DNA of 64,000 bases from an uncultured Piscirickettsiaceae bacterium. Its GTDB lineage: Bacteria; Pseudomonadota; Gammaproteobacteria; GCF-002020875. The notes under the pieces are model-generated. The model ran no database searches and was not told the DNA's origin. It worked only from the letters and a program-made list of their open reading frames with translations. Position numbers and translations under genes: made by a program. Of the stretch, positions 23,782-51,991 are shown piece after piece. Positions within the stretch are counted from its first letter, which is position 1; each line of letters starts with the position of its first letter. The DNA lies in assembly GCA_964344785.1 (NCBI GenBank), contig CAYFOR010000001.1, positions 22,723 to 86,722 of the forward strand, given 5' to 3'.

Positions 23782-24812
23782 TTGCTCACCACACGGAGAG
23801 ATTTGTAGGGGACCACTCTGCTTCCCAACGGAACATCCACCTCAGGCAACGGTTCCCCCTTGGCCAGCGAGACCACATCCTCCAGCAGTGGCACCCCTGC
23901 AGCAATACTGACCACAACACTGCCACTTTGCCGGGGATTGATCTCCAGTACACAGGGGTTTCCCTGGCGGTCGTACATCACATCGCAATCGTAAAGCCAG
24001 GAGAGGTTGAACCCTTTGATCAGCTGCTCTCCCAGTTGCTGCAACTCGGGAGCATCAACCAGTGTATGCCCCTCATTGGGTACTGCGGAATCAATACGCC
24101 TGCGAGCAACCACACGCATCGGTTCCCCCTTCCATGCCAGCATATCAAGATCATGTACCGGTTCTTCAAGTCGTTCCATTACCAGTACAGGAAATGACTC
24201 CGAGAACCCTTGCAGATAGCGGTTCTTGAAGTGCTCCAGATCCATATGGATCTCACGTCGGTCATCAAACCGCTGCTCCCCTTCAATATCACTGCGGATC
24301 ACACAGACCCCCCGTCCTCCCCGCTCCGAAGAGGGTTTGATCACAAACTCGGGAAGCTCCTTTGCAAAGTCAGCAATCACTGCCTCCAGTGAGGTAATAC
24401 TTGTAGTCTCTTTCCAGGCAGGCATCTTTACCCCCAATAACTCAAGGCGGCGGTAGGTCTCTACCTTGCTGGAGACCGTCTGTACCACCTCCGTCGGCGC
24501 ACAGGCCAGAATCCGTTCACCCGACTCAACACGCTGTCGCGCTTCGGCAAGCGCAAGCGCCTCTTCATCCGAAGTAGGCAGAATCAGATCCACCTGAAAA
24601 CGCTCTGCAATCTCGATAATGGCGTCCACATAACCCGGCTCTGCACCCATCGGAGTCAGTGCGAAGTGGTCACAAAAGTGACGGCCGATGGCGCTCTCCT
24701 GGGCGTCCACACCCACAACCTTGATATCATGGCGTTGGCTCTCTTTAAGCCCCTGGATCATTTGCGGGGCCATCTCACCGCCTACACATGTCAATAGAAT
24801 AGTAAAGCTCAC
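23778..24812 (-). CDS. ATP-grasp enzyme (CPSase large-subunit-like ligase)
   Basis: 344 aa; VIKPSSERGGRGV and LEINPR segments. Confidence 0.6.
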   Translation of the reverse strand: MSFTILLTCVGGEMAPQMIQGLKESQRHDIKVVGVDAQESAIGRHFCDHFALTPMGAEPGYVDAIIEIAERFQVDLILPTSDEEALALAEARQRVESGERILACAPTEVVQTVSSKVETYRRLELLGVKMPAWKETTSITSLEAVIADFAKELPEFVIKPSSERGGRGVCVIRSDIEGEQRFDDRREIHMDLEHFKNRYLQGFSESFPVLVMERLEEPVHDLDMLAWKGEPMRVVARRRIDSAVPNEGHTLVDAPELQQLGEQLIKGFNLSWLYDCDVMYDRQGNPCVLEINPRQSGSVVVSIAAGVPLLEDVVSLAKGEPLPEVDVPLGSRVVPYKSLRVVSK

Positions 24813-24918
24813 GATAGTTTCTCAACGAATTCCAAGGATAGAGTCACAAAAGGCCATATTCGGATCACTTCACTGCAAGTTGACCGGTAGTCACTACCGT
24901 AGTGCAACCGCAGGCTCT

Positions 24919-25971
24919 TTATTCGAACAGCCCCTCAGTTACCGGTTCATCCACTGCCAGATCGCGAACGGCCCGGCAGCCCAGCACCTCATCATAACGT
25001 GCGGGCTCCAGTCCTCTGTGCTCTGGCAAAGGACGTTTGACCGTCAAATTCTCCTCTGTAAACCGCTCACCTGCAGCCAATGCACGACGCACAACCAGAC
25101 AACGCATGAATTTCTTTCGTGTCCCACCCAGAATCTCAGCACTCTCTTTGCCGACGTGTTTTCCCATCACAGTCTCTGCCTGACGTACCCGGGTTACCAA
25201 TCTGCGCAGACCCTCAGGATCAACCGAGATATGATGATCCAAACCACTACGTGAGGGGTCCAGAGTAAAGTGTTTCTCAATCATGCTCGCTCCGGCCGCA
25301 ACAGCAAGTGCCGCCGCTTCATCTCCCAGCGAGTGGTCCGAAAAGCCGACCGGTACTTCCCACTTCCTAGACATCCGCTCCATAGTCGCGAGATTGAGTG
25401 TTTCAGGAGGTGCCGGGTAGAGGGAGGTACACTGAAAGAGGGCAATCTTGTCCGCCCCCTCCTGCCGTACCATCTTTAGTGCGGTATCAAGCTCTGCCTC
25501 CTCTGCCATACCACTGGAGATCAGAATGGGCCTGCTGTAGCCGGCAATACGGCGAATCAGCGGGAGATGGGTCAGCAATCCCGATGAAACCTTGTGTGCG
25601 GCTGGCTGCAGTGCCTCAACCCATTGCAGGGTGTTGAAATCACCTGCGGTAGTGAGTGGCTCCATACCCAATGAACGGGCCAATTCAAACATCCTGGCGG
25701 TCTCTTCACGGGTCAGGCCCGCCCCCTTGAATACCTTATGACTCTCACTGCCTACCACATAGTTCTCATCGGCATCGATGGTCTGCAACTTGATGGCGTC
25801 TGCCCCGGCACGAGCCGCCTCTTCGACCATCCTGGCACACTGCTCGACACTCCCCTCATGGTTGACTCCAATCTCGGCAATCACCACAACCGGTGCATCC
25901 GGGCCAATTCTGCGGCGCCCAAATGGGATGGATGCCACACGATCCGTCTCTTCCATTTCGAGCTTCATCAC
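24919..25971 (-). CDS. pseI: NeuB/PseI-family nonulosonate synthase with SAF domain (paralogue 3; probable pseudaminic acid synthase given its neighbours)
   Basis: 350 aa; VIAEIGVNHEGS, GFSDHS and IEKHFTLD motifs; adjacent to pseG. Confidence 0.8.
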   Translation of the reverse strand: MMKLEMEETDRVASIPFGRRRIGPDAPVVVIAEIGVNHEGSVEQCARMVEEAARAGADAIKLQTIDADENYVVGSESHKVFKGAGLTREETARMFELARSLGMEPLTTAGDFNTLQWVEALQPAAHKVSSGLLTHLPLIRRIAGYSRPILISSGMAEEAELDTALKMVRQEGADKIALFQCTSLYPAPPETLNLATMERMSRKWEVPVGFSDHSLGDEAAALAVAAGASMIEKHFTLDPSRSGLDHHISVDPEGLRRLVTRVRQAETVMGKHVGKESAEILGGTRKKFMRCLVVRRALAAGERFTEENLTVKRPLPEHRGLEPARYDEVLGCRAVRDLAVDEPVTEGLFE

Positions 25972-25984
25972 TTTTCTCTCTTAT

Positions 25985-26962
25985 TCAAACGGAATATTCA
26001 CTCATGACTGCCGCTACTCGCCTGCCTCCTCCCCCATCGACGGCCCCACGTCCCATTCTGGCCATCTCTCCTCGCCTAGAGCAGTCTTGAAGCAGTGCTT
26101 GGAGCTGATTCATCATCATCTCGACCGTAAGCCCCGAAGCGATACCCAGGTTTTGGGTAGCCCCCTGTTCCACAGCCCACTCCACCTGATTACGTTGATT
26201 GTCGGCCACAATCACAGACAGTGAAGGTCTGCCGGCAGCCATGCGCTCAAACAGACTGACACCACCAGCACCCATAACCAGCTGTACTGAAGACATCAAC
26301 TCACACATTGCCCTGGTATCGACATACAACTCAACTTCCACCCTTCCCATCGAAACGGCATTACGTAATGCTGCAAGATGGGGCGCACCACTGCCAATTG
26401 CGATCGCCACTTTCCCCTTGAAACCAGTCTGCTCCAGAGCCTGCAGGGCCAAACTACTCAGATTATGTGAATCACGCAGACCAAAGGCGAGGAGTACACT
26501 GTCAACCTCACCTTCAGGTTCACGAAGTCCCGCGTAGCAGGGATCGAGCAACGCATAGCGAGCACCAGAAAGCAGACGGGAATCTCCGATCAGATGGTGA
26601 GGTACAACGTGCAGGCTCGGCGCAATGATCAGGTCCGCTTGCTCCGAGGCCGTACCGAGATCGTCGATCTGGGCCAAAACACCGCAACGTCCCTTCCACT
26701 CCTTTCGCTGCGCCTCACTGAAACTGTAACCATCCATCAAAACCCCACGGAACGAGGCAAGATCCGGCAACATTTGTCCACTATAGGAGATGCCCATCCC
26801 TTCTGCCTCGATCCTTTCAGCCCATGATTCACCGCCGGGATCCAATACAAAATGAACCGGCTGAAGGCGTTTAAGCTCCTTTGCCAATGTAAGGCAACGC
26901 GCCAGATGCCCCCCTCCCACTTCTGGTGTCGAAGCAACGCGAAAGACCCAGCCTCCGGCCAC
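25985..26962 (-). CDS. pseG: UDP-2,4-diacetamido-2,4,6-trideoxy-beta-L-altropyranose hydrolase (PseG, GT28-like fold)
   Basis: N-terminal FRVASTPEVGGGHLARCLTLAKEL resembles the PseG signature. Start placed at GTG 26962 to avoid overlap with the upstream gene; the track ORF runs to 27082. Confidence 0.65.
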   Translation of the reverse strand: MAGGWVFRVASTPEVGGGHLARCLTLAKELKRLQPVHFVLDPGGESWAERIEAEGMGISYSGQMLPDLASFRGVLMDGYSFSEAQRKEWKGRCGVLAQIDDLGTASEQADLIIAPSLHVVPHHLIGDSRLLSGARYALLDPCYAGLREPEGEVDSVLLAFGLRDSHNLSSLALQALEQTGFKGKVAIAIGSGAPHLAALRNAVSMGRVEVELYVDTRAMCELMSSVQLVMGAGGVSLFERMAAGRPSLSVIVADNQRNQVEWAVEQGATQNLGIASGLTVEMMMNQLQALLQDCSRRGEMARMGRGAVDGGGGRRVAAVMSEYSV

Positions 26963-26975
26963 TGACTGGGTTCCG

Positions 26976-27944
26976 TTAACCGGGAAGACCTGCCATACGA
27001 CGTGCACGAACGGTCTCGTGCAGGATACGGGCAGCCTCCACCCCATCACATGCGGGCTTCTCTTGCCCTTCAACACAAGCAAGAAAAGATGCCATCTCTA
27101 CCTTGTAGTCCTCTGCTGCACTACTCTCCCACACCCACTGATTGAGCAGGGTACCATCGGTTGACGTATGCTGAAGACGACGGTTGCTGATCTCCAGGCG
27201 TAGAAAGCCGCTTGAGCCACAAATTTCCGTTACCCTGTATTTTGGACGGGTGATGTAATCCACGTGAGTAACCGAAACCAAACCATCAGGATGACGCAAC
27301 ATGATATCCGCACAGTCGTCACTTTCGATCTCCAGTTGACCACTGGTTCTCGCCTCGCATGCCACCGTCTCACCCGCTCCAAAAAGATAGTTGGCCAGAT
27401 CGAGTTCATGAATGGAGTCAAACAGCACACCACCGCTCTTCGGATCAGCGGCATACCCTTTTCGATAATCACTATCCGGTCGCCAATCGGGCAGATAGGA
27501 GCCACACATCAGCCGACTCCAGAGTATCTCTCCAATCGCGTTAGACTCAATCAGTGACTTTGCCTTGCGAACACCAGGGTGGTAACGCAGATTCTGCCCT
27601 ACAAAAAAGACCCGTCCAGTACTGGCAGCAGCCTCAACCAGTGCATCCAGCCCCTCTATGGTATGTGCCAGTGGCTTCTCTACAAAGATGTGGCACTCCT
27701 GATCCAGGGCTGCGGCGCAATGATCAATATGGTGCGCATTCGGTGTTGCAACAACAACCGCTTCGCCTCCTCGAAGAGCGGCCTCGACACTGTCAACAGT
27801 CCGCCCCCCCTTCTCTTCGAGCATGGCTTGCCGCTGCGTGTCAGGGTCAAACCCGATCACCTCCGCACCAAGCTCAATGAGGTTAGTTGCATGACGCAGA
27901 CCAATGGAGCCCAACCCAAGAACCGCAACTACACGCCTAGCCAT
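26976..27944 (-). CDS. Gfo/Idh/MocA-family oxidoreductase
   Basis: 322 aa; VVAVLGLGSIGLRHA Rossmann motif. Confidence 0.75.
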   Translation of the reverse strand: MARRVVAVLGLGSIGLRHATNLIELGAEVIGFDPDTQRQAMLEEKGGRTVDSVEAALRGGEAVVVATPNAHHIDHCAAALDQECHIFVEKPLAHTIEGLDALVEAAASTGRVFFVGQNLRYHPGVRKAKSLIESNAIGEILWSRLMCGSYLPDWRPDSDYRKGYAADPKSGGVLFDSIHELDLANYLFGAGETVACEARTSGQLEIESDDCADIMLRHPDGLVSVTHVDYITRPKYRVTEICGSSGFLRLEISNRRLQHTSTDGTLLNQWVWESSAAEDYKVEMASFLACVEGQEKPACDGVEAARILHETVRARRMAGLPG

Positions 27945-28494
27945 TTTGCGCTAACCACTCACTACGTAATAGACCAAACTCAATACAGTCCACAAACTCG
28001 TTATCACAAAACGCGTGACCTCTGCGGACCCCTTCAGTGGCAAAATTGAGTTTCTCGAAGAGCCTGACCGAAGGTCGGTTGACCACATAGGCGGATGCTG
28101 TCACCTTGTTTAGCTCCAGCTCCTGAAAGGCAAACCGTGCCAGCAGCATGATCGCCTCACCGCCAAACCCCTTTCCATGGCTCCGGCTATCCCCAATCAG
28201 AATACCAATGCTGCCGCGACGATGGTTCCAGTCCACTGGCCCCAGCTTGATGTTGCCAATGTGCTGGTCATCCTCTATGGTGGCGACCGCAAACAGATAA
28301 CTGTTTTTATCCTTCTCCATCGACGTGACATAGTCACGAAGGGACTCTCTATCCCAAACTCGATAACGGCTCTCCAGATAACGGTTGATCTCGGGATTGT
28401 TCATCCACTTGCAGTAGCACTCTGTGATTTCATCCAGACGTAACTGCCGCAAGCGGATACGCTGCCCATCCAGTTGGTACTGGTCAACATTCAC
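27937..28494 (-). CDS. GNAT N-acetyltransferase (PseH-like)
   Basis: 185 aa; acetyl-CoA-binding motif IGDSRSHGKGFGGEAI; position between pseB/pseC and pseG. Confidence 0.65.
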   Translation of the reverse strand: MNVDQYQLDGQRIRLRQLRLDEITECYCKWMNNPEINRYLESRYRVWDRESLRDYVTSMEKDKNSYLFAVATIEDDQHIGNIKLGPVDWNHRRGSIGILIGDSRSHGKGFGGEAIMLLARFAFQELELNKVTASAYVVNRPSVRLFEKLNFATEGVRRGHAFCDNEFVDCIEFGLLRSEWLAQNG

Positions 28495-28533
28495 AGCACG
28501 CCCTCACCCCTAGAACACAGCATCAAATCTGGC

Positions 28534-29562
28534 TCAATCCGCCATCATCTCCTTGAGTGCCACTTCATCCAGCCACATTGAATTGAGATTACTTGCATAC
28601 TCAAACTCCCCTTCAATCGCTGTGGCCCCTTTCTCGCTCCAACTGGTATAGGCCCACTCATGGAACATCGGTTCAATAATATAACGGTCATCCAGCTCAA
28701 CCGCATTGTGTGCGTCATCCTTGGTAATCATCAGTTCATGCAGCTTTTCTCCGGGACGAATACCAATCAGGTGTGTTGGCAGTCCTGGTGCCAGTGCATC
28801 AGCCAGATCAACAATCTTCATACTGGGGATCTTGGGCACAAACAGCTCTCCCCCCTGCATCGAGGTTAAAGACGAGAGCACAAACTCCACACCCTGACGC
28901 AGGGTGATCCAGAAACGGGTCATACGCTCATCGGTGATCGGCAGGCTTTCAACCCCTTCGGCAACCAATCGCTGAAACAGCGGAACAACACTGCCGCGTG
29001 AACCGACCACATTTCCATATCGAACCACGGCAAAGGAGGTCTTGCTCTCGCCACTCATCGCATTCGCGGCAATACAGATCTTGTCCGCCGCCAGTTTAGT
29101 CGCACCATAGAGATTGAGCGGACTTGCGGCCTTGTCTGTTGAAAGTGCCACCATACGCTTTACACCACAGCGTATGGCTGCCCTGCAGACATTCTCTGTA
29201 CCAATGATGTTGGTATTGACACACTCAAACGGATTGTACTCAGCAATTGGTACATGCTTCAGGGCTGCCGCATGGATCACATAGTCGACTCCGCGCATCG
29301 CCATCACTAGCCGCTCCTGATCACGCACATCGCCAATATAGAAGCGGATCTGTTTCTTGTACTCTTCAAACTCGGCAGCCATTTCATACTGCTTGAGTTC
29401 GTCACGAGAGTAGACCACGATCTTTCTTGGGCTGTAGTTCTCCAGCACATACCGAATAAAGGCCTTACCGAAAGAACCGGTACCACCCGTTACCAGAATG
29501 GCACTGTCATTCATGTACTCCGCTTCCATTCCGGACAAAAAAGATTTACTAGAAAAATTCAT
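28534..29562 (-). CDS. pseB: UDP-N-acetylglucosamine 4,6-dehydratase, inverting (PseB/FlaA1 family)
   Basis: ILVTGGTGSFGK, YGATKLAADK and a size of ~330 aa. The likely start is the internal Met (MNDSAILV) near 29514. Confidence 0.8.
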   Translation of the reverse strand: MNFSSKSFLSGMEAEYMNDSAILVTGGTGSFGKAFIRYVLENYSPRKIVVYSRDELKQYEMAAEFEEYKKQIRFYIGDVRDQERLVMAMRGVDYVIHAAALKHVPIAEYNPFECVNTNIIGTENVCRAAIRCGVKRMVALSTDKAASPLNLYGATKLAADKICIAANAMSGESKTSFAVVRYGNVVGSRGSVVPLFQRLVAEGVESLPITDERMTRFWITLRQGVEFVLSSLTSMQGGELFVPKIPSMKIVDLADALAPGLPTHLIGIRPGEKLHELMITKDDAHNAVELDDRYIIEPMFHEWAYTSWSEKGATAIEGEFEYASNLNSMWLDEVALKEMMAD

Positions 29563-29718
29563 TTAACTACCACCCAATAATTACCAACACCTACCAATTT
29601 AGGCATTTTTTGTTTTACACAGAACCGCGTTACCAAACACTTTTCCAAATCCGTAGCTCAATATCGGCTCTTCATTTACCCTCTTCCTGTTTCCTGTTCC
29701 CTGCAACCACGCCAGAGG
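29563..29718 (-). promoter_or_regulatory. AT-rich intergenic spacer, probably an internal promoter / 5' leader for the pseB-proximal half of the locus
   Basis: A 156-nt non-coding gap, the only large one inside the locus, AT-rich with a short direct repeat ttcctgtt x2. Confidence 0.35.
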
Positions 29719-30411
29719 TCACCAAAGCTCACGAATCACCACAAAGGCCTCGGCCGCCATACAACCGACACTACAACCCCGAAATCCGGCCAGATGACGT
29801 ACCCCTTCCATAGACCGGGGGTGAGGAAATGGCCTCATCTCATCTGCATAGGCCTCAAGTGCCTCCATCTTTTGCTCCAGTTGCTGCGATATATCGACAT
29901 AGCGGACAGGGCGAAAGCCCGTTTGATCCACTGAGGGGACGGACCACTCCGTACTGGACAGCGTCTCAAAACAGTAGATGGAGCGTTTATGCGTGCCCGG
30001 CATCGGACGTGTTGCGGTGATCACGGCCTGATGCACGATACGATGATCTACATTCAGATCCCCACCATGATGAGTGTAGATGATATCCGGATCCACCTCC
30101 TGGATGACTGCTTCAATCGGCTTGATCACATCCAGCAGGTCCCCCCGATCAAGACGGTTATCTGGAAAGCAGAGAAACGTTGGATCATCATATCCTAGGA
30201 TATCGGATACCTGACATGCCGCCTGCTTCAACCGATCAACCTCATCCGAGGCACCATCAGCTTCCTCCCCACCTTTTCTGGAAGTGGCCCCCTCGGCAAC
30301 AATCAAAACAGAGACACGGTCCCCTTCCATCACATGGCGTGCAATGGTCCCTCCGCAACCGAGCACTTCATCATCCGGATGGGCAGCAACGACTAATACG
30401 GTTTGTGACAC
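29719..30411 (-). CDS. PIG-L/LmbE-family N-deacetylase
   Basis: 230 aa; AHPDDEVLGCGG signature. Confidence 0.8.
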   Translation of the reverse strand: MSQTVLVVAAHPDDEVLGCGGTIARHVMEGDRVSVLIVAEGATSRKGGEEADGASDEVDRLKQAACQVSDILGYDDPTFLCFPDNRLDRGDLLDVIKPIEAVIQEVDPDIIYTHHGGDLNVDHRIVHQAVITATRPMPGTHKRSIYCFETLSSTEWSVPSVDQTGFRPVRYVDISQQLEQKMEALEAYADEMRPFPHPRSMEGVRHLAGFRGCSVGCMAAEAFVVIRELW

Positions 30412-30469
30412 TGGCTTGTATCCTTCTTGTTTCAGTCTATAAGGTAGAGCAGTCTTTCTCAGGGAATGG

Positions 30470-31675
30470 TCAGTCTACCCCTAACTCTTCCATCAACCCA
30501 GCAGCGATAAACTCCACATCCGCATCCTGCAGGGATGGATAGAAGGGGATGGAGAGGGTACGAGCATAGTAGCGGTCTGCGCCATCCAGCTGGCTCTCCC
30601 CATAACGGTTGCAATAGTAGGGTTGCCGATTGATGGGAAGGTAGTGCACCTGTGTGCCGATCCCACGCTGGGACAGCCCTCTCATCATCTCGCCACGCTC
30701 ACGCCCCAACCCCTCAAAATCGATCAATACAGGATAGAGGTGTAGCGCATTGTCACTGAACTGCTGCTTCCTGACCGGTACCAGAACTGGTGCTGCCGCT
30801 TCCAGCAGTTGATCATATTGTGACTCAATCTGGCGGCGCCGCTGCAGAAAGCGGGAGAGCTTACCCAGCTGACTCAATCCCAATGCGCAGTGAATATCAC
30901 TGGCACGGTAGTTATAACCCAGCTCCTGCATCTCGTAATACCACGGGTTGGCACTCTCATCACTCCCAAACCCCTGTGTCTGGTCCTGCCACTGCCGGGC
31001 GTCACGTGTCATCCCATGATTACGCAGCAGCGATGCACGTGCAGCCATTGCATCATCATTACAAGTGACCGCTCCCCCTTCACCCATGGCAATATGTTTT
31101 ACCGGGTGAAACGAGAAAATGGTGAGATCACTATGGGCACAGTCACCGACAGCATAGTTGCTACCATCGCGGCTTCTATAACGTGTTCCCAGTGCATGAC
31201 ATCCATCCTCAACAACATACAATCCATGTTGCCGGGCATACTGGGCCAAAGGCTCCATCTCCACACACTGTCCGTTCAGGTGAACCGGAAAGACCGCTTT
31301 GACCGGGCCTTCTGCCCGTTCTACTGCATTCTTGAGGGTCTCTACGTTCATCAACCCCGTATCCGGGTCTACATCGGCAAATACCACCTCTCCACCGACA
31401 AAACGGATGGCATTGGCAGTGGACAGAAAGGTAACCGCAGGTACTACAACCCAATCACCAGGCCCAATACCGAGGACCATCGCGGCCAAGTGCAGTGCGG
31501 CAGTACCATTCGCGCAAGCGACTGCATGTCGACTCTCAACCTGTTTGGCAAGCGCCTCTTCGAAAGCGCTTACGGCTGGGCCGGTCGTTAGATAATCCCC
31601 CATCAAGACTGCCGATACCGCAGCCACGTCATCCTCATCGATCTGCTGACGGGCATAGGGGAAAAAACGGCTCAT
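30470..31675 (-). CDS. pseC: DegT/DnrJ/EryC1-family sugar aminotransferase (PseC-like)
   Basis: 401 aa; the PLP-lysine region [15 protein letters not shown] and the C-terminal [12 protein letters not shown] motif typical of PseC. Confidence 0.75.
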
Positions 31676-32238
31676 GAACGGATTGGCTCCAGCCCGTCAT
31701 CCCCCTTCTGATAACGTGTCCCACACTCCGGGCAGGCGAGCTGTTCATCCAGTTTTACTCCACAGCTGCAGGCCCACCCCTTCTGCCTGGCAGGGTTTCC
31801 CACCATCAATGCATGATCAGGAATATCCCGTGTTACCACCGCACCAGCCCCGATCAGGCAGTACCGTCCCAACGTGTTGCCACAGATGATGGTGGCATTC
31901 GCTCCGATTGTGGCGCCCCGCTTGACCCGAGTCTCACGATATTCATGTTTGCGGGAGACATGGGCACGCGGATTGATCACATTGGTAAAGACCATGCTTG
32001 GACCACAAAAGACATCCTCTTCCAGCACCACACGATCATAAAGGGAGACATTATTCTGGATCCGTGCATTGTCTCCAATTATCGCCTCATTGCCGACAAA
32101 GACATTTTGCCCTAAGGAGCAACCAGCACCAATCCTCGCTCCAGAACAGACATGTACCCAGTGCCAAATTGCAGTACCATCACCAATAGTCGCACCCTCA
32201 TCTACAATAGCGGAAGGGTGAATGTTGATATTATCCAA
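31672..32238 (-). CDS. wbpD: Hexapeptide-repeat (LbH) N-acetyltransferase (WbpD/WlbB-like)
   Basis: 188 aa of left-handed beta-helix hexapeptide repeats. Confidence 0.7.
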
Positions 32239-32241
32239 GCG

Positions 32242-33330
32242 TCAAAGCTCCAACGGCAGTGAGACCTGTTTTCCATCACGCGCCGAAAGATATGCTGCGA
32301 TCAGCAGTTCAAGTGAACGCAATCCTTCCCTACCATCGGTCTCTGGCCCTGCCTCGCCACGTAGCGTCTGGATCACATTATGGTAGTAGAGCGGATGACC
32401 AAAACCATATACGGAGGTGGTCTGATAGCTTGCTTCACGGATTTTTTCATCCTCTTCCCGCGGCTCATCAAACTCCCAGTGCTGAATCTCATTCACGGCT
32501 ACACCACCAACCCGTACCGTCCCCTTCTCACCGATGATGGTGATGGAACCTTCCATATTTTTAGGATAGGTGAGCATGGTGACGCTCATGGAACCCAACG
32601 CACCGGAGCGCCACCGAACATTCATCACGGCGGTATCCTCCACCTCGATATTGCGCGCCAAGGTTCCCGTCATTGCCTGTACGCTATGGACTGGTCCAAT
32701 CAGCCAATCGAGCAGATCGACATAGTGGCTTGCCTGATTCATCAGTGCACCACCATCAAACTCCCAGGTGCCACGCCAACCGGCACTGTCATAGTACTCC
32801 TGTGGACGGGTCCAGAAAACGTTGACATGGACCATGAAGATCCGCCCGAACCGCCCTTCATCCACTGCCTTCTTGAGTAACTGCAAGGTGGCATTACGCC
32901 GATTCTGCTTCACCACGAAGAGGCGGACACCAGCTTCATCACACGCCTGTACCATGGACAGTCCGTCTTTCCAACGGGTCGCCATCGGTTTTTCGGTCAT
33001 GATATGACGCCCTGCTCTGGCACACTGAATGGCCTGCTCCGGATGTTGGCCGCTGGGTGTACAGATGGTCACCAGATCAACATCCGACTGTTCCAGCATG
33101 GATTGGAGATCACCGTAAGGCGCAGCCCCGGTGGCCTCACTCGCCCTCTGCAGAACGCCGGAGTCTGCATCACAGACTGCTGCCAGCTCAATCTGATCCC
33201 CATGCTTCTTGACCGCCTCGAAGTGCTTTTGGGCGATACGGCCACACCCCACCAAACCAAAACGGATTTTTCGATCAGAAATAATTTTGGCGCCAGTACT
33301 CATTCTGCTACACCGTTGCCAAGCCAGCAA
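32242..33330 (-). CDS. wbpB: Gfo/Idh/MocA oxidoreductase (WbpB-like UDP-GlcNAcA 3-dehydrogenase)
   Basis: IRFGLVGCGRIAQKH Rossmann motif; sits between the wbpD-like and wbpA/wbpE-like genes. Confidence 0.7.
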   Translation of the reverse strand: MLAWQRCSRMSTGAKIISDRKIRFGLVGCGRIAQKHFEAVKKHGDQIELAAVCDADSGVLQRASEATGAAPYGDLQSMLEQSDVDLVTICTPSGQHPEQAIQCARAGRHIMTEKPMATRWKDGLSMVQACDEAGVRLFVVKQNRRNATLQLLKKAVDEGRFGRIFMVHVNVFWTRPQEYYDSAGWRGTWEFDGGALMNQASHYVDLLDWLIGPVHSVQAMTGTLARNIEVEDTAVMNVRWRSGALGSMSVTMLTYPKNMEGSITIIGEKGTVRVGGVAVNEIQHWEFDEPREEDEKIREASYQTTSVYGFGHPLYYHNVIQTLRGEAGPETDGREGLRSLELLIAAYLSARDGKQVSLPLEL

Positions 33331-33336
33331 AGTGGC

Positions 33337-34779
33337 TTACCGCCCATAAATATCCTCAAAACGAACAATATCATCCTCTCCAAGATAACTCCCCGACTGC
33401 ACTTCGATCATCTCCAGAAGCAGTTTCCCGGGGTTTTCAAGCCGATGTCGGGCACCTACCGGAATATGAATGGACTCATTTTCACTGAGCAGAAGTTCTT
33501 CCTCTCCTCGAGTCACCTTTGCGGTTCCCTTCACTACAATCCAGTGTTCAGCCCTGTGATGGTGCATCTGTAAACTGAGACTGGCCCCGGGTTTCACCGT
33601 AATCCGCTTGACCTTGAATCGATATCCCTCATCGATACAGTCATAGGTGCCCCAGGGGCGTGCCGTATGGCTATGTTCAGTCGCTTGCGGCAGCTCCTCT
33701 TCTTTGAGCTGAGTAACCACCTCCTTGACCTGTTCGGCATGGCTGTTATCTGCAACAAGCAGCGCATCCTGGGTATCGATAATCAGGAGATTACTGGTAC
33801 CTAGGGCCACTACAGGTCGATGTGGAGCATGGATATAGGTATTTTCTGCGGAATGTACTCTTCCCTTCCCATATACGTGATTATTCTCACCATCTCCGGG
33901 AGAGAGATCTGCAACCGCATTCCAGCTACCCACATCACTCCAAACCCCTTTAAAAGGGACCACTGCAATGGAGTATTGCCCATCAGGGTCTGACGCCACC
34001 TTCTCCAGCAGCGCATAATCGATCGACTCGCTACGACACTCCGCAAATGCATCATGGTCGAGGTAGTGAAAATCACCACTTACACGCTGCTTCTCTACCG
34101 CACTGCAACTTGACTCCAGAATATCCTCGGCATAGCCATCCAGTGCATTGATCAGAACGTCCGCCTTGGCAAGAAAAATCCCGGCATTCCAGTAGTACTG
34201 TCCACTACACAGATAGCGATCCGCCGTCTCAAGGTCGGGCTTTTCAACAAACTCCTCCACTTCGAAAGCAGCCTGATTCTCATTGGAGCCATGTGCCCGT
34301 TTGATATAGCCATAGGCGGTACTGGGGAAGGTAGGCTCAATGCCAAAGGTGACCACGGACCCTTTTTCTGCCTCCGCAACACCACTTTCGATCGTTTCAG
34401 CAAAACGTTCCACATCTGGAATATGGTGGTCTGCCGGTACGAACAGCAGCAGTCGATCCCCTCCGTGCGACTGCCTGATATTCAAGGCCGAAACCGCAAT
34501 GGCTGCTGCGGTATTGCGCCCTACAGGTTCAAGCAGATGGACAACCTCCATGCTGGCTGCCTCTGCCGCTTCGGCAACAAGAAAGCGGTGCTTCTCACTG
34601 GCAACAATCCAGGTCTTGTGATCTTCGTGGCTGCTTAGCGATTTGGTCCTCTCCAGAGTAGCCTGCAGCAGGCTTTTTCCACCAATGAGAGGTACAAACT
34701 GTTTGGGCAGGGATGCTCGAGAAAGGGGCCAGAGGCGTGTCCCGGAGCCGCCAGCCAATATCACCGGTGTTACATTCAC
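33337..34779 (-). CDS. manC: Mannose-1-phosphate guanylyltransferase / mannose-6-phosphate isomerase (bifunctional ManC/AlgA type, C-terminal cupin)
   Basis: 480 aa; VILAGGSGTRLWPLS N-terminal motif and a C-terminal cupin. Confidence 0.85.
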   Translation of the reverse strand: MNVTPVILAGGSGTRLWPLSRASLPKQFVPLIGGKSLLQATLERTKSLSSHEDHKTWIVASEKHRFLVAEAAEAASMEVVHLLEPVGRNTAAAIAVSALNIRQSHGGDRLLLFVPADHHIPDVERFAETIESGVAEAEKGSVVTFGIEPTFPSTAYGYIKRAHGSNENQAAFEVEEFVEKPDLETADRYLCSGQYYWNAGIFLAKADVLINALDGYAEDILESSCSAVEKQRVSGDFHYLDHDAFAECRSESIDYALLEKVASDPDGQYSIAVVPFKGVWSDVGSWNAVADLSPGDGENNHVYGKGRVHSAENTYIHAPHRPVVALGTSNLLIIDTQDALLVADNSHAEQVKEVVTQLKEEELPQATEHSHTARPWGTYDCIDEGYRFKVKRITVKPGASLSLQMHHHRAEHWIVVKGTAKVTRGEEELLLSENESIHIPVGARHRLENPGKLLLEMIEVQSGSYLGEDDIVRFEDIYGR

Positions 34780-34825
34780 TATTTTGCGATGCTGTTGCGT
34801 TGAGATTGCAGGCGAGTCAAGAGCG

Positions 34826-36100
34826 TTACAGCCGTAAGTCTACCTCTTCACTGGAGAAGAGATATTTCACATCATACAGCACATGTTCCGCTTTACCTAA
34901 AGCGCGCACTTGAGAGGCCCCCAGTGCCCTGAACTGATCGTGTGCGACGGCCAGTATAATCGCATCATAACTGGAAGTTTGGGGTTCGCCAATCAGCTCA
35001 ATTCCATACTCTTCTGAGGCATCTTCCGGGTTTACCCAAGGGTCGTAGACATCAACGCTGCAGCCATACTCACCAAGCTCATTGATGATATCGGTCACCC
35101 GAGTATTCCGTAGATCCGGGCAGTTCTCCTTGAACGCAAGCCCCATAACCAGTACTCGTGCCCCATCGACCTGAATACGGCGTTTGGTCATCACCTTGAC
35201 CAGTTGGCTGACTACATACTCACCCATTCCATCATTCATTCGCCGTCCGGCCAGAATGATCTGCGGGTGATAACCAATCGCCTCGGCCTTGTGGGTCAGG
35301 TAGTACGGGTCCACTCCGATACAGTGCCCTCCAACCAGCCCCGGCCGGAACGGCAGGAAGTTCCATTTACTTCCCGCTGCCTCCAGTACGGCCTGTGTGT
35401 CAATTCCCATACGGTTGAAGATCAGCGCCAGCTCATTGACCAGCGCAATATTGAGATCACGCTGAGTATTCTCAATCACCTTGGCCGCTTCCGCCACTCG
35501 AATACTGCTGGCCTTGTGGGTACCCGCAGTAATGACTTGCAGATAGAGTTCGTTGACAAAGTCAGCCACCTCGGGTGTTGAGCCGGATGTCACCTTCTTG
35601 ATTGTGGTAACACGGTGTTCCTTATCCCCCGGATTGATCCGCTCTGGGCTGTAACCACAATAGAACTGCTCGTTGAACTTCAGTCCCGACTCCTTCTCAA
35701 GCACAGGAACACAATCCTCTTCGGTCGCCCCTGGATAGACAGTAGACTCATAGATCACAACATCCCCTTCTTTGAGGACTGATCCAACAGAACGGCTGGC
35801 ACTAATCAGTGGTGAAAGATCGGGCCGCTTATAGTCATCGATTGGTGTCGGAACGGTGACGATAAAGCAGTTGCATTGCCTCAGGGCCTGCAGATCGGTT
35901 GTAAAGCTAAGCTGTGTGGCAGCCTGAAGCTCCTTTTCGGTTGTCTCCAGCGTTGAATCAACTCCTGATTCCAGCTCATCAATACGCTGCTGGTTGATAT
36001 CAAAACCAACAACCGAGCGAATCCGCCCAAACTCGACAGCCAGAGGTAACCCCACATAGCCAAGACCGATAATGGCTAGTTTTACATCAGATAATTTCAA
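34826..36100 (-). CDS. wbpA: UDP-N-acetyl-D-glucosamine 6-dehydrogenase (WbpA/WecC-type nucleotide-sugar dehydrogenase)
   Basis: 424 aa; [16 protein letters not shown] motif and the central catalytic Cys region. Confidence 0.8.
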
Positions 36101-36146
36101 GTAAGCGCCCTCATCAAGTACTGTTTATTACTTCACCATCAACTGC

Positions 36147-37241
36147 TCAGCCCAACGCCTCTTTCAACCCTTCTACCACCAACTGTTGATCTGACTCCGT
36201 CAGATAGGGGTGCATTGGAAGGCTCAGTACCCGCTGGGCAAGAGACTCTGCCACTGGCAAATTGACCTCCCCCACCCCTCTCGCCTGCAATGCTGGCTGA
36301 TGATGCAAAGGCAGCGGATAGTGTACTGCAGTCGGGATATCTTTCTGCTTCAGCTCAGCCACTACTTTGTCCCGCTCATCCACCTGAACGGTGTACTGTG
36401 CATATACCGACTGATTATACGGTTCAATGCGCGGTGTCCTGCAGGCCACTTCAGATAACAACGTGGAGTAGCGTTCACCCACTTCCCTTCTCGCAATCAC
36501 CTCCTGTGGAAATTTGGGGAGTTTTGCCAATAACATGGCTGCTTGCAAGGTATCGAGTCGTCCGTTTACACCGATTGAGGCATGCTGATACCGTCTACTC
36601 TGTCCGTGTATTCGAAACTCTCTGATCCGCTGTGCGAACTGGGGATCATTTGTGAAACAGGCACCGCCATCACCAAACCCTCCGAGCGGCTTGGATGGAA
36701 AAAAGCTGGTACAGCCAACATTACCCAGGCTGCATGCCATGCGTCCTTTGTAGGTCGCACCAAAGCTCTGCGCACCATCCTCGATCACAACCAGATTGTT
36801 TCTCTCTGCAACCTCATTGATTGGATCGTAGTCAGCACACTGGCCATAGAGGTCCACAGGAATGATCGCCTTGGTCTTTGGCGTGACCTTCTTCTCCAGC
36901 TGCTGCGGGTTGAGGTTGTAGTTTTCTGGATCCACATCCACAAAAAGAGGGGTTGCCCCCAACAGCATGATCACCTCTACTGTGGCAAAGAAGCTGAACG
37001 GGGTTGTGATCACCTCATCCCCTTGCCCAATATCTGCCGCCATCAGCGCCAACAGAAGTGCATCCGTTCCACTGGACACTGCAATGCAGTGCTCAACGCC
37101 TACATAGGCCCGCAAGACCGCCTCCAACTCCTCAACTTCAGGCCCCATAATATAGCGCCCATGCTGAAATACCTGATCAATACGATCCCGAACTTCCTGT
37201 TCAACCCCCTGAAACTGGGATTTGATATCAAAAAACTGCAC
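36147..37241 (-). CDS. wbpE: DegT-family aminotransferase, WbpE-like (UDP-2-acetamido-2-deoxy-3-oxo-glucuronate aminotransferase)
   Basis: 364 aa; collinear with P. aeruginosa WbpE (GDEVITTPFSF, TKAIIPV(D/S)LYGQCAD, RLDTLQAA(M/I)LL, AVHYP(L/I)PL(H/N)(H/K)QPA). Confidence 0.85.
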   Translation of the reverse strand: MQFFDIKSQFQGVEQEVRDRIDQVFQHGRYIMGPEVEELEAVLRAYVGVEHCIAVSSGTDALLLALMAADIGQGDEVITTPFSFFATVEVIMLLGATPLFVDVDPENYNLNPQQLEKKVTPKTKAIIPVDLYGQCADYDPINEVAERNNLVVIEDGAQSFGATYKGRMACSLGNVGCTSFFPSKPLGGFGDGGACFTNDPQFAQRIREFRIHGQSRRYQHASIGVNGRLDTLQAAMLLAKLPKFPQEVIARREVGERYSTLLSEVACRTPRIEPYNQSVYAQYTVQVDERDKVVAELKQKDIPTAVHYPLPLHHQPALQARGVGEVNLPVAESLAQRVLSLPMHPYLTESDQQLVVEGLKEALG

Positions 37242-37267
37242 GAGCTAAAGGCTCAGGTTAGCCCCAA

Positions 37268-38278
37268 TCAGATGTTGTAATACTCTTTGTACCACTGCAC
37301 AAAGCGTTCGATTCCTGATGCCACGGTGGTCTCAGGCTTGTAATCAAACTGCTCTACCAGGTCGTCCACATTGGCATAGGTATCGGGCACATCTCCTGCC
37401 TGCAGCGGCAACAGCTCTTTCGTTGCAGTCATTCCCAACGAGTTCTCCAGCGCCTCGATGTAGTCCATCAACTCAACAGGCTTGTTGTTCCCAATATTGT
37501 AGACCCGCCATGGTGCCTTGCTGGTACCGGGATCGGGATCGCCACTATCCCACTCTTCATTCCCCATTGCAGGCCGATCCAGCACCCGGATCACTCCCTC
37601 TACGATATCGTCGATATAGGTGAAGTCACGGCGGTGCTTACCGTAGTTGAAGACCTGAATCGGCTCTCCAGCCAGAATCGCCTTGGTGAACTTGAAGAGC
37701 GCCATATCGGGCCGTCCCCATGGCCCATAGACCGTAAAGAAACGCAGTCCGGTTGTCGGTAATTCGTACAGATGGCTATAGGCATGCGCCATCAACTCAT
37801 TTGATTTTTTACTTGCCGCATAGAGACTTATCGGGTGATCAACATTCTGGTGCACCGAAAACGGCATGGCCGTATTTGCGCCATACACACTGGAGCTGCT
37901 GGCATAGACAAAATGCTCGACACCATGATGCCGGCACCCTTCCAGAATATGAACAAAACCGACGATATTGCTATCGACATAAGCCATCGGATTTTCAATC
38001 GAATAGCGTACACCCGCCTGGGCCGCCAGGTTGACTACCCGATTGGGTTTGTGGGTTGCAAAGGCGCTTTCAACCGCCTCCCGGTCCCCAAGATCAATTC
38101 TCAGATGGGTATAGGCCGGATGACCTGCATAGCGTGCCAACCGCGCCTCTTTGATTTTGGGGTCATAATAGTCGTTGTGGTTATCGATTCCGATCACCTC
38201 ATCGCCACGCTCCAACAACCGCAATATCAACGTAGAACCAATAAACCCAGCCGCACCTGTAACAAGAACTTTCATCAC
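37268..38278 (-). CDS. NAD-dependent epimerase (UDP-glucuronate 4-epimerase family); first gene of the locus
   Basis: [31 protein letters not shown]. The track start is GTG 38278; ATG at 38275 is an alternative. Confidence 0.8.
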
Positions 38279-38301
38279 GTCTTCCCAATATTTATTAACA
38301 G

Positions 38302-38313
38302 CACGCTACCGCC
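38302..38313 (-). promoter_or_regulatory. ops element (RfaH-recruiting site) in the 5' leader of the glycan operon
   Basis: Plus strand reads cacgctaccgcc; its reverse complement is 5'-GGCGGTAGCGTG-3', an exact match to the 12-nt ops consensus. It lies ~25 nt upstream of the first gene's start and is followed by GGGAAGA (RBS). Confidence 0.6.
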
Positions 38314-38503
38314 ACGACGCACAAATACTTATGCATCCTGCAGAAATTTCCACATTGTAGGATCTGTAAGAAGCGCGAAATTGTAGCCCATATGACTTAT
38401 TTGTATTCACAGTAAAAATTATTGGCAGATTATAAAATCATTGTTTATAGACTACCGAAAGCGGTATATATTTGACCGTTCTTGAATCTAATTCCAGTGC
38501 TAT

Positions 38504-38591
38504 GGAGAGATGGCCGAGTGGTCGAAGGCGCACGCCTGGAAAGTGTGTATACGGAAACGTATCGAGGGTTCGAATCCCTCTCTCTCCGCCA
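38504..38591 (+). tRNA. tRNA-Ser (anticodon GGA), type II with long variable arm, CCA encoded
   Basis: Cloverleaf folded by hand: acceptor GGAGAGA/TCTCTCC, anticodon stem CACGC/GTGTG with loop CTGGAAA, variable arm TATACGGAAACGTAT, T-loop GGTTCGAATCC. Confidence 0.85.
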
Positions 38592-48250: not shown

Positions 48251-48577
48251 CTACAGGCGCTTTTTCTTTTTTGGCGGAACAAAGGTTGGATCATTGGGAT
48301 TGAGCACAATCAGACTCATTTCACCCTCGTCCAGCTCCACATAATCGAGGGTGGCATCATCGAGGTACTCTTCAAGGTCCTGGTTGATAAAGAGTTTCAC
48401 CCCCTCAAACTCGAATTCAAGATCCTTTTCCCGCTTCTCATCAAAACCGATCCCATAGTCATAGCCGCCATCGCCCGCCTCCTTAATGGCAACTCTCAAC
48501 CCCAATTCCTCCTCAATCTCGCCCTGCTCAGCAGAGTGACGGATAAAATCCAATGCGCTATTCGTTACTGTAATCAT
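48251..48577 (-). CDS. dsrR: DsrR, IscA/HesB-like A-type carrier homologue
   Basis: 108 aa with the HesB/IscA fold (MITVTNSALDFI...GLRVAIKEAGDGGYDYGIGFD); the Cys ligands of true IscA are absent in the part seen, as described for DsrR. Confidence 0.7.
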   Translation of the reverse strand: MITVTNSALDFIRHSAEQGEIEEELGLRVAIKEAGDGGYDYGIGFDEKREKDLEFEFEGVKLFINQDLEEYLDDATLDYVELDEGEMSLIVLNPNDPTFVPPKKKKRL

Positions 48578-49932
48578 TCCACGTCCTTGTACTTATGCTG
48601 TCGAACCCGCTCGACAAAATCATTAACCCAGGGATTTTCTCGGGTATTGCGTTGATGAACATACCCTGCCAATAGGTTTTTGTAAACCACTCCATCCCTA
48701 TTTCCATCAATTCCATGACCACGATGGATGGTAAAGGCATACTCTGTACTTTCCGGCAATCCCTCAAGCGAGGAGTAGTGAAACTCATGGGCCGGGCGCT
48801 GATGAACACCATCATGGCTGAAACGTACATAACCTCTGCCTTGCGGCCGTTTATGCATCTGACTGACCGCCGAGACCACCCCCACCATCTCAGCCCGCTC
48901 CCCCCCCCATTCAATGGAGTCGGACAGATACATCAACCCTCCACACTCCGCATAGGTTGGCAGACCATGCTCAATCGCTTCATGGATCTGCTGACGCATC
49001 TTCCGATTGGATGCCAACTGCTTCATATGGGTTTCCGGGAAACCGCCACCGATCAGTAATCCATCCACGGCAGGAAACGTATCATCGTGAATCGGACTGA
49101 ATGGAACCAGCTCTGCGCCTGCCTGCGCAAAGGCCTCCAGGTCAGCCTCATAATAGAAGCCAAACGCTTCATCACGTGCAATGGCAATCCGTAACGGACG
49201 GGATAGATCAGTCGGCACAGAAGAAGGCTCTTTGGAGAAAGAGTCTTGCCCTGTTTCGGTTTTGCAGAGCGATCGCAGCCGTTCCAGATCAACCTGTGAC
49301 TCAATCCGCGTGCGAATCTGATCAATCTTCTGCTGCACACGATCCGCCTCATTACTGGGCACCAAGCCGAGGTGACGCTCAACAATTTCAACCGCTGGAT
49401 CTTTCCCAACCACCCCGAGGATCGGAAGGTCGGTATAGTACTCAACCACCTGTCGAAGTTTCTGCTCGTGTCGACTGCCTGCCGTCTGGTTCAATATCAC
49501 CCCGGCAATCTCGACCTGAGGGTCAAACTGCTGATAACCGATCAATAAAGGCGCTACTCCGCGGGTAATGCCATGGGTATCAATAACCAGCAGCACCGGT
49601 ACCTCCAGGAGTTTTGCCATTGCAGCATTGCTGTCACTACCATCCAGAGAGAGACCATCAAAGAGCCCTTTATTGCCCTCAATCAGAGTCAGATCACTGC
49701 CTGCCTGTTTGGACCGGTAGAGTTCGATAATCTCCTCTTCGGCCATGGTGTAGAAGTCGAGTGTGTGACAGGGAGAAACCGATGCCCTGGAGAGCCACAT
49801 CGGATCGATATAATCCGGCCCCTTCTTGAAAGCGGAAACAGAATGGCCGCGTGCCGCAAAAGCGCCACACAAGCCAATCGTAATCGTGGTCTTGCCTGAG
49901 GATTTATGGGCTGCAGAGAGATAAAGAGACAC
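48574..49932 (-). CDS. dsrN: DsrN, cobyrinate a,c-diamide synthase-like amidase (siroheme amidation)
   Basis: 452 aa; CbiA/CobB N-terminal P-loop AAHKSSGKTTIT and a C-terminal glutamine amidotransferase-like domain. Confidence 0.8.
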   Translation of the reverse strand: MSLYLSAAHKSSGKTTITIGLCGAFAARGHSVSAFKKGPDYIDPMWLSRASVSPCHTLDFYTMAEEEIIELYRSKQAGSDLTLIEGNKGLFDGLSLDGSDSNAAMAKLLEVPVLLVIDTHGITRGVAPLLIGYQQFDPQVEIAGVILNQTAGSRHEQKLRQVVEYYTDLPILGVVGKDPAVEIVERHLGLVPSNEADRVQQKIDQIRTRIESQVDLERLRSLCKTETGQDSFSKEPSSVPTDLSRPLRIAIARDEAFGFYYEADLEAFAQAGAELVPFSPIHDDTFPAVDGLLIGGGFPETHMKQLASNRKMRQQIHEAIEHGLPTYAECGGLMYLSDSIEWGGERAEMVGVVSAVSQMHKRPQGRGYVRFSHDGVHQRPAHEFHYSSLEGLPESTEYAFTIHRGHGIDGNRDGVVYKNLLAGYVHQRNTRENPWVNDFVERVRQHKYKDVE

Positions 49933-49958: not shown

Positions 49959-51185
49959 TCAGCAAGGAACGTCTGCAGCAGAGCGTCGGTCCACATGCTC
50001 CAGATTCAGTGTCTCCGGTACCAGGCGAATCACCTTGATCGCGAACAGGAACAGTGCCAATGCCAGCGCCACACCGCCGAGACCCAACAGAATCTCTGGC
50101 AGGGATGGGGTATAGCTATTGACCCCACCGTCATAGAAACTACTGGTCACCTCTTTACCGGGGAACAGAATCAATGGGTAGGCCTGTCCACCAATCACGA
50201 TACCATAGATCTGGGCAATGCCACCGATGATCACCAGACCGGCTGCAGTCAACAGCGCCTGATAGTTATGATCGAATGCAGAGTGGTAGATCAGCACCAA
50301 TGGAATCACCCCCCCAATCACTACCTGTCCAATCCAGAACAACAGAGTATAGACTCCGCCATCCACCAGGATGAAATATTCGAAGCCATGATGCTCCGCT
50401 GCATATAGATTGGTGATATGAAACACGACGGTAAAATAGAGTACGGCAGCCACGAATACGCCGAACAGATTTTTCAGGCGTACAATCAGATCCGTACTGA
50501 TTGAACGGTTCGTCAGACGGTAGGTCCCAACCAGCAGGATCAGGAAAAAGGCCTTACCGAAGGCAAAGGACATAATGATAAACATCGGTGCCATCAGCGA
50601 GGCATCATACCCCTGTCGCGCCGATAGAAAGCCGAAAATGGAGCCTGTACCGGTTGTCAATGCCAGCCGCCAGAGGAAGGCCGCAGTTCCGGCAACACGG
50701 GTATATTTCTGCATGGCAGGATCAAACATGGTCCAGAGATAGGCCAGAACAATTGCAAAGAAACCGGTATAGAGATAGATATTCCAGGCAAAGATTGATT
50801 TGAAATTATATTGTGTCATCGCAACGATCAGTCGGTCTGCACGCCCCAGATCGAGCACCAGTACGGCCAATCCACCCGCCAGCAGAGTCAATGCAAGAAT
50901 TGCTGACATCCGTGCGAGCGGCTTGTAGATACGCTGATTGAACACAGACGAGATTGAGGCCACATTGAGCGCTCCAGATGCCGCCACAATCAGGAAAATC
51001 GCAAACACGTGGGGTACCCCCCAGACGACCTGGTTATCCATTCCGGTAACATAGTGCCCACTATGCATATAGAAGAAGGACCCGGCAGCCATCAGGATAA
51101 AGAGCCCAAGAACGCCCATCAATCCCCAATAGCCTATACTCCGGCCTTCAATTCCACTATAGATCACCTTTTTTGTTTCATACAT
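49959..51185 (-). CDS. dsrP: DsrP, NrfD/PsrC-like integral membrane subunit
   Basis: 408 aa, ~10 TM helices, follows dsrO. Confidence 0.8.
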   Translation of the reverse strand: MYETKKVIYSGIEGRSIGYWGLMGVLGLFILMAAGSFFYMHSGHYVTGMDNQVVWGVPHVFAIFLIVAASGALNVASISSVFNQRIYKPLARMSAILALTLLAGGLAVLVLDLGRADRLIVAMTQYNFKSIFAWNIYLYTGFFAIVLAYLWTMFDPAMQKYTRVAGTAAFLWRLALTTGTGSIFGFLSARQGYDASLMAPMFIIMSFAFGKAFFLILLVGTYRLTNRSISTDLIVRLKNLFGVFVAAVLYFTVVFHITNLYAAEHHGFEYFILVDGGVYTLLFWIGQVVIGGVIPLVLIYHSAFDHNYQALLTAAGLVIIGGIAQIYGIVIGGQAYPLILFPGKEVTSSFYDGGVNSYTPSLPEILLGLGGVALALALFLFAIKVIRLVPETLNLEHVDRRSAADVPC

Positions 51186-51214
51186 ACAGACTAGCCCTAT
51201 TCGCTGGTTACTGA

Positions 51215-51991
51215 TCAGATCCCCTGGTATCGAATACCAGGATTGGTCCCCAGGTCTGCCCGGATCTGCGTTGAATTGACGCTGGCCAACCGTTTGGAAA
51301 TTTCACTGTTGGGGTCCTTGAGGTCCCCGAAAATGATCGCCCCGCTTGTGCAGCTCTCAACACACGCAGGCTGCTCACCACGATCCACACGATGTACACA
51401 CATGGTGCATGACTCAACCGTGCCCATGCCTCGTGGTGCATGGGCTCTCTGATCATGCAGTGACTCATGGATAAAGGAGCGCGCCTTGTATGGACAGGCC
51501 ATCATGCAATAACGACAACCGATACAGATATGTTTATCGACCAGAACGATGCCGTCATCCCGTTTCATTGATGCCCCGGTGGGACACACATCCACACACG
51601 GTGGGTGCTCACAATGCTGACACATCATCGGCAGCTGATTCGTATGTCCGGTCTGTGTATCACGGACAGTAACGGTTCGGATCCACTGTGCCTTCTGACG
51701 ATCACTGGAGTGCCCTTCATCACTTGATCCTGCACCCCATCCATTCTCCATCTGGCAGGCCGTTACACAATCCTTGCAGCCCTCAACACACTTGTTGGTA
51801 TCGATCAACATGCCCCAACGTACTGCACTGCTGGCTCCCTGACTGGCATCCTTTCCATCCGCATGTGCAATGGTCAACAGGGTGACACCGGGTGCAATGA
51901 CCGCTGTGGCACCCGCAGCCTGACCCAGGAAGCGACGCCGCGCGGCATCGACCACCTCTGTATCATGCTCTATATTCCTCTCCTTGCTCAT
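51215..51991 (-). CDS. dsrO: DsrO, Tat-exported ferredoxin-like 4Fe-4S protein
   Basis: RRRFLGQAAGATAV Tat motif; multiple CxxCxxC(x)nCP clusters. Confidence 0.85.
   Translation of the reverse strand: MSKERNIEHDTEVVDAARRRFLGQAAGATAVIAPGVTLLTIAHADGKDASQGASSAVRWGMLIDTNKCVEGCKDCVTACQMENGWGAGSSDEGHSSDRQKAQWIRTVTVRDTQTGHTNQLPMMCQHCEHPPCVDVCPTGASMKRDDGIVLVDKHICIGCRYCMMACPYKARSFIHESLHDQRAHAPRGMGTVESCTMCVHRVDRGEQPACVESCTSGAIIFGDLKDPNSEISKRLASVNSTQIRADLGTNPGIRYQGI

Follow-up and report, generated by a model that had tools for sequence, protein, structure and literature searches.

The RfaH-dependent operons of Escherichia coli and Salmonella include waaQ (rfaQ), rfb, region 3 of the group 2 capsule kps genes, hly and F tra. 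In enterobacteria and Vibrio, the leaders of polysaccharide gene clusters reportedly share a conserved element of 39 bp, JUMPstart, which Hobbs and Reeves are said to have described in 1994 and which contains ops. The processivity factors UpxY of Bacteroides, LoaP of Bacillus and TaA of Myxococcus are each encoded within the operon that they serve, and none of them relies on the GGCGGTAG ops.

Within ops, the bases G4, G5, T6, A7 and G8 are needed for the recruitment of RfaH and T11–G12 for the pause, and the sequence matches the general consensus pause (PMC5995543). Approximately 70% of the known rfaH genes are gammaproteobacterial; outside the Enterobacteriaceae, RfaH has a patchy distribution and has often been lost or transferred horizontally (PMC7593976). 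The neighbours of rfaH are often genes for nucleotide-sugar epimerases and HTH regulators, and in the RfaH clusters CL2–CL8 a cis-encoded RfaH and its ops lie beside sugar-epimerase/HTH-regulator genes (CL4 with an HTH regulator). The rfaH gene of E. coli is unlinked to its targets and its product acts in trans (PMC7593976).

The stretch of DNA analysed here, referred to as the window, is 64 kb long and contains a large glycan locus that begins beside a tRNA-Ser gene. At the head of this locus is a perfect copy of the 12-nt ops sequence, which is a genuine ops element and most likely the loading site of a trans-acting RfaH. The main features are collected in Table 1.

Table 1. Features of the window, and of one homologous locus (last row, in the coordinates of that locus).
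Feature	Position	Strand	Basis and remarks
Predicted ops-controlled unit, at least 37 co-directional genes	1..38275	-	Annotation; small gaps; no terminator-like site in larger gaps
Largest internal gap, before pseB	29563..29718	-	No ops; GGTGGTAG then TTAA, 5/12 mismatches, no T11–G12
NAD-dependent sugar-nucleotide epimerase, 335 aa, first gene	37268..38275	-	PF01370, 196 bits
AT-rich intergenic leader/promoter region, tRNA-Ser to first gene	38276..38503	-	Sequence; no credible ORF
ops element (RfaH loading and RNA polymerase pause site)	38302..38313	-	Exact, unique; motif kept before homologous first genes
Candidate sigma-70-type promoter, TAAACA-18-AATAAT, 9/12	38418..38447	-	Prediction; such sites no commoner than in shuffles
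tRNA-Ser(GGA), upstream locus boundary	38504..38591	+	Transcribed away from the locus; 3' end faces pgsA, not the locus
CobB-like amidotransferase	48574..49932	-	
DsrMKLJOP-like membrane and Fe-S proteins	49959..56736	-	
DsrC	56897..57232	-	
Two DsrE/F-family proteins	57652..58468	-	
DsrAB-like NIR_SIR proteins	58533..61015	-	
L114 module	3771..4265 and 4440..4834		

The ops element and its leader

The reverse complement of positions 38302–38313 reads GGCGGTAGCGTG, an exact 12-nt ops on the non-template strand, which is the sense strand for the locus, and is identical to the ‘ops12’ oligonucleotide of the structural work on E. coli RfaH and the RfaH:ops complex (PMC5995543). All 12 positions of the consensus that was used for assignment (GGCGGTAGnnTG) are intact. 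The element shares its strand with the gene train and precedes the first gene; it is intergenic, with no credible ORF covering it. The initial annotation had placed an exact ops here, ~25 nt before the first gene (an epimerase at 38278) and at the end of the locus that adjoins tRNA-Ser. This description is correct: the spacing is 23 nt to the GTG at 38278 and 26 nt to the ATG at 38275, and the tRNA-Ser(GGA) gene lies 190 nt upstream of ops on the opposite strand. The start on the public record is the ATG rather than the GTG, as identified from the 335-aa product, because this is the only one recorded.

The exact sequence occurs only once on the two strands of the window. About 0.01 copies per window are expected from base composition (an arithmetic estimate), and ~2e-5 copies on the sense strand of the ~230-nt leader alone; none of 100 dinucleotide-preserving shuffles contained an exact copy. 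Matches to GGCGGTAGNNTG with one mismatch (6, with 3.2 expected) are present at chance level, and so are matches to the element with two mismatches (7, with 4.5 expected). The exact copy apart, all near-matches are at other coordinates, and those with one mismatch break G4, G8 or A7. Near-matches at chance frequency elsewhere in the window would be in keeping with the exact 12-mer being a coincidence as well, but the shuffles, together with 12 homologous loci that carry the motif at a matching position (see below), effectively refute this explanation, to which we assign a negligible probability.

The largest internal gap of the train holds no second copy, as had been noted earlier, nor does any of the near-matches fall in it. 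A candidate in this gap, GGTGGTAGTTAA at 29566–29577 (- strand), 3 nt before the ATG of pseB, was rejected as an ops, with C3 replaced by T, no T11–G12 and mismatches at 5 of the 12 positions. Another GGTAG is found 20 nt upstream of it.

The AT-rich region between the tRNA-Ser gene and the first gene must hold the promoter of the locus and, on the + strand, the divergent promoter of tRNA-Ser. Promoter-like sites are present on both of its strands, in numbers that are not above chance. One candidate on the sense strand (38447–38418) would, as a prediction only, put the start of transcription near 38410, ~100 nt upstream of ops. TAATAA- and ATAAAT-like hexamers are found between ops and the ATG, which makes a start downstream of ops conceivable. 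The site could then be functional without RfaH, as a part of a promoter or operator upstream of the true start; alternatively, it could be read by another NusG paralogue or a DNA-binding regulator, and the fit of ops to the general consensus pause (PMC5995543) is compatible with a role outside the RfaH system. However, the 26 nt between ops and the ATG leave little room for a promoter and a leader, and no scored promoter-like site was found there. In addition, the homologous loci couple the motif to true RfaH genes, and the proteins score far below the cutoffs for UpxY and LoaP. A non-RfaH function of this kind is thus considered improbable.

A scan of 37000–47000 against Rfam, which presumably holds a JUMPstart family, returned only tRNAs and spurious matches at E≤1, with no JUMPstart-type or other cis-element in the leader. 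Judged by curated model, the window leader contains neither the ~39-nt JUMPstart element nor its hairpin, and Rfam scans of the five homologous loci that carry rfaH in cis likewise gave no JUMPstart or other cis-RNA. The heptamer CGCGCTT is present at 38371–38377 (- strand), 57 nt upstream of ops; in six of the homologous loci (L085, L086, L089, L091, L098 and L114) it is located ~19 nt upstream of ops, usually as CGCGCTTGC. This recurring heptamer could be a common piece of a promoter or operator, or a coincidence.

The Shine–Dalgarno sequence of the first gene is weak (GGGAAG, with an anti-SD duplex of -4.2 kcal/mol). Comparison of Shine–Dalgarno sequences along the train is noisy, because the ORF starts are the longest possible ones, and only the weakness at the first gene is used here. 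In the 26-nt gap after the first gene there is a weak terminator-like hairpin (37241–37255, - strand) with a 5-bp stem and a T-rich tail; it is a possible early attenuation point, which an antiterminator would have to override.

The motif and rfaH in homologous loci

The surroundings of the motif were compared in 80 metagenomic loci (555 kb) that contain a homologue of the first gene at 72–85% identity. Twelve copies of GGCGGTAGNNTG are present in this set, all of them on the sense strand and confined to the upstream side of the homologue, a total of 201 kb in which ~0.2 would be expected; antisense to the homologue or downstream of it, there is no copy in the 555 kb. The flanks of the 12 copies diverge between loci while the 12-mer is kept, with 9 of the 12 continuing ...GCC. 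The copies sit at the extreme 5' edge of the next open frame, and are therefore in leaders. Recurrence that is sense-only and upstream-only, with diverged flanks, bears the hallmark of a functional, orientation-dependent element that heads gene clusters of this kind and is under purifying selection.

In five of these loci (L114, L098, L119, L089 and L091), a homologue of RfaH ends ~160–180 nt upstream of ops. With E. coli RfaH as the tblastn query, the homologues in the first four loci are full-length and 32–35% identical to it, and the one in L091 is truncated. The four complete proteins score 158–166 bits, compared to the 144.5-bit cutoff of the NCBIfam RfaH equivalog TIGR01955, and fall well short of those set for NusG, UpxY and LoaP. 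In the alignment, K10, R23, Q24, T72, G74 and V75 are kept, while H20 is replaced by N and R73 by K; all of these are among the ops-contacting residues in the RfaH:ops structure (PMC5995543). The module shared by the rfaH-linked loci starts with rfaH, which a spacer of ~160–180 nt separates from an exact ops; next comes either ugd or a small MarR/EpsA-like ORF, and then the epimerase gene. This order agrees with the published neighbourhoods of rfaH, in which nucleotide-sugar epimerases and HTH regulators are common (PMC7593976). In the rfaH-linked loci, several of the ops copies lie between the arms of a short inverted repeat (GGCA...TGCC), which could pair into a stem enclosing the ops core.

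Searches by tblastn (E. coli RfaH and NusG, and the RfaH of L114) detected neither rfaH nor a nusG-like gene in the 64-kb window and its 1.26-kb extension (see below), and Pfam annotation showed no NusG-like domain among the non-locus genes of the window. As the rfaH gene of E. coli is itself unlinked to its targets (PMC7593976), absence from 64 kb says little.

The glycan gene train and its chromosomal site

The target of the element is a train of at least 37 co-directional genes for glycan biosynthesis and export, with a length of at least 39 kb. A 38-kb unit had been described in the initial annotation; the long co-directional train is indeed present, but its extent was given as too short, since the train runs past position 1. 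The window matches an ENA metagenome contig at 100% identity. On an identical contig from that metagenome the train continues for at least 1.26 kb, with a KpsS/C-like protein (a faint PF05159 match) and an enolase-superfamily-like gene. The intergenic gaps are mostly <60 nt, the largest ones between listed ORFs being 156, 106 and 82 nt; in the larger gaps no terminator-like sites were found, and those along the train are mostly intragenic.

The train encodes a UDP-diacetamido-uronic-acid (Wbp-like) pathway with a WbpB/D/E-like set of oxidoreductase, acetyltransferase and aminotransferase, as well as a sugar-nucleotide epimerase, DegT aminotransferases, a UDP-sugar dehydrogenase and ManC. Pseudaminic-acid genes are represented by PseB (511 bits, with a cutoff of 408), a PseG-like hydrolase, a NeuB/PseI-like protein and a CMP-transferase, in addition to a GNAT protein. 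The train specifies two cytidylyltransferases and two ATP-grasp enzymes, together with methyltransferases, an aldehyde dehydrogenase, a transketolase-like protein, a fused ABC exporter (13981–15783) and a glycosyltransferase-like ‘surface carbohydrate biosynthesis’ protein. The locus contains three paralogous NeuB-family nonulosonic-acid synthases (9011–10540, 6519–7571 and 24919–25971, all on the - strand), one of which (509 aa) is fused to a C-terminal cupin or lyxose-isomerase-like domain. The transketolase-like protein, the aldehyde dehydrogenase, the two ATP-grasp ligases and a class III aminotransferase are encoded near these paralogues, and together they suggest an elaborately decorated nonulosonic acid.

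The region upstream of the locus carries, in the same orientation, uvrC, an APS kinase gene and pgsA. The UvrC protein is no more than 64% identical to that of any GTDB species representative, the best matches being MAGs of Chromatiales, Sedimenticolaceae and Thioalkalispiraceae. The window also features a complete dsr-type sulfur-oxidation cluster at 48574–61015 (- strand; individual genes in Table 1). The UvrC matches and the dsr operon therefore point to an uncultured, Chromatiales-like sulfur-oxidising gammaproteobacterium as the host; in the literature that was searched, no paper ties RfaH to Chromatiales or to sulfur oxidisers. At the far end of the window there is a gene for a Cas6 endoribonuclease (62253–63065, + strand; PF09559, 180 bits), with neighbours at 61568–62368 and 63070–63540. 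Tandem Repeats Finder detected no CRISPR array in the window; an array or other cas genes may lie beyond position 64000.

Synteny was assessed in 80 uvrC loci from the nearest reference genomes. In none of the 80 is GGCGGTAGNNTG present after pgsA, and the same holds for this glycan locus. A single other match to the 12-mer among these loci (L063) was taken as chance, as it is inside a coding region. The relatives carry uvrC–pgsA–tRNA-Gly-Cys-Leu at this position (L002–L052): of 12 uvrC loci checked, 11 have tRNA-Gly after pgsA, in most cases accompanied by tRNA-Cys and tRNA-Leu. In the window, 38504–41829 breaks this synteny, with the APS kinase gene between uvrC and pgsA, followed by the opposite-strand tRNA-Ser(GGA) and the glycan locus. 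Since the relatives have neither the locus nor ops after pgsA, the arrangement is lineage-specific at this position, and the glycan locus could have been acquired together with its ops. For the same reason, with tRNA-Gly-Cys-Leu in the place of the locus, conservation at the orthologous site is not usable as a test of the element. Integration of an island at the tRNA gene is unsupported: it is the 5' end of tRNA-Ser that faces the locus, there was no sign of an integrase, and the G+C content equals that of the flanks.

An acquired locus raises the possibility of an orphan or vestigial ops, whereby the head of the locus and its leader came from, or recombined with, an RfaH-using lineage and now reside in a host without RfaH, the element acting as an elemental pause at most, or being inert. 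The chromosomal site that is not conserved, the lack of rfaH in the window and the patchy occurrence of RfaH outside the Enterobacteriaceae, with its frequent loss and transfer (PMC7593976), can all be cited for this, as can the finding that homologues of the first gene 85% identical to it are present in many unrelated contigs, while UvrC reaches only 64%. On the other hand, a 12-mer that is not under selection would decay, yet every position of this one is intact. The G+C content of the locus is the same as that of its surroundings, its sense strand is G-rich and its strand skew matches the flanks, giving no sign of recent import; moreover, rfaH is unlinked to its targets in E. coli too. We therefore consider an orphan ops to be unlikely, although it deserves to be kept in mind.

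Proposed function and comparison with known systems

The reading that we prefer is that ops is functional, with a trans-encoded RfaH loading at the element and the whole train of at least 39 kb being expressed from one promoter; this is probable on the evidence given above. The initial annotation went further in stating that the element ‘implies’ RfaH-dependent antitermination. The copy is exact, on the sense strand, in a leader, conserved, and linked to rfaH in five loci, but ‘implies’ is too strong: we infer that this genome encodes RfaH, that ops lies within the transcript and that the train forms a single operon.

In the proposed mechanism, transcription would start in the AT-rich 190-nt spacer beside tRNA-Ser. 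RNA polymerase would pause at U11 of GGCGGUAGCGUG, and the non-template DNA would form the small ops hairpin in which G5 and T6 are exposed; the pause and the hairpin are established for this exact sequence in E. coli. A NusG paralogue of the RfaH family, encoded elsewhere in the genome, would then bind the hairpin and the polymerase and switch to its active fold. By staying on the polymerase, RfaH would exclude NusG and Rho and suppress pausing, and it may help to load a ribosome on the first gene, with its weak Shine–Dalgarno sequence, 26 nt downstream. A single promoter could in this way serve the whole glycan train, with its 37 or more genes over at least 39 kb.

There is also a slim chance that a perfect ops is maintained in an organism without RfaH, where it would be used by the housekeeping NusG, by another paralogue, or by the polymerase alone as a ribosome-coupling pause. 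If this were true, the ops code could operate independently of RfaH outside the enteric lineage. The milder reading, in which RfaH acts in trans, would, if true, make this the first RfaH/ops regulon of the trans-acting type in a Chromatiales-like sulfur oxidiser. The unit, which spans at least 39 kb and has 37 genes or more, would then rank among the longest RfaH-type units predicted.

The finding reveals no new mechanism. It adds a deep-branching, uncultured gammaproteobacterium that oxidises sulfur to the hosts of the exact enterobacterial ops 12-mer, and is thus a known control element in a new host. With the homologous loci taken into account, ops/RfaH is a recurrent head-of-locus module for environmental polysaccharide clusters, in which rfaH is sometimes present in cis and sometimes, as here, is not. 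In the present case the element would show where a very large locus for a nonulosonic-acid glycan truly begins at its 5' end, and where its probable sole promoter lies. A prediction that follows is that heterologous expression of such clusters needs a matching RfaH.

Compared with the ops elements of E. coli and Salmonella, the window has the identical 12 nt on the non-template strand, as a single head copy in the leader of a long surface-polysaccharide operon. It differs in its host, an uncultured, Chromatiales-like sulfur oxidiser, and in the short distance of 26 nt between ops and the start codon. Nor is the locus AT-rich relative to its genome, in contrast with the enterobacterial paradigm of AT-rich, Rho-prone foreign DNA. 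As in capsule loci, the target train includes a KpsS/C-like protein and an ABC exporter. The leader resembles JUMPstart in having the 3' half with ops upstream of a polysaccharide cluster; unlike JUMPstart, it has no Rfam match at E≤1 and the sequence 5' of ops is dissimilar by eye, leaving a ‘bare’ ops. Like UpxY, LoaP and TaA, the presumed factor would be a specialised processivity factor for a long biosynthetic operon, whereas the RfaH homologues of the rfaH-linked loci are far below the cutoffs of both UpxY and LoaP. The closest arrangements are those with rfaH and ops in cis (L114, L098, L119, L089 and L091), which share the first gene of the window at 79–84% identity; in the window, tRNA-Ser and pgsA take the place of rfaH, and the factor would have to act in trans.
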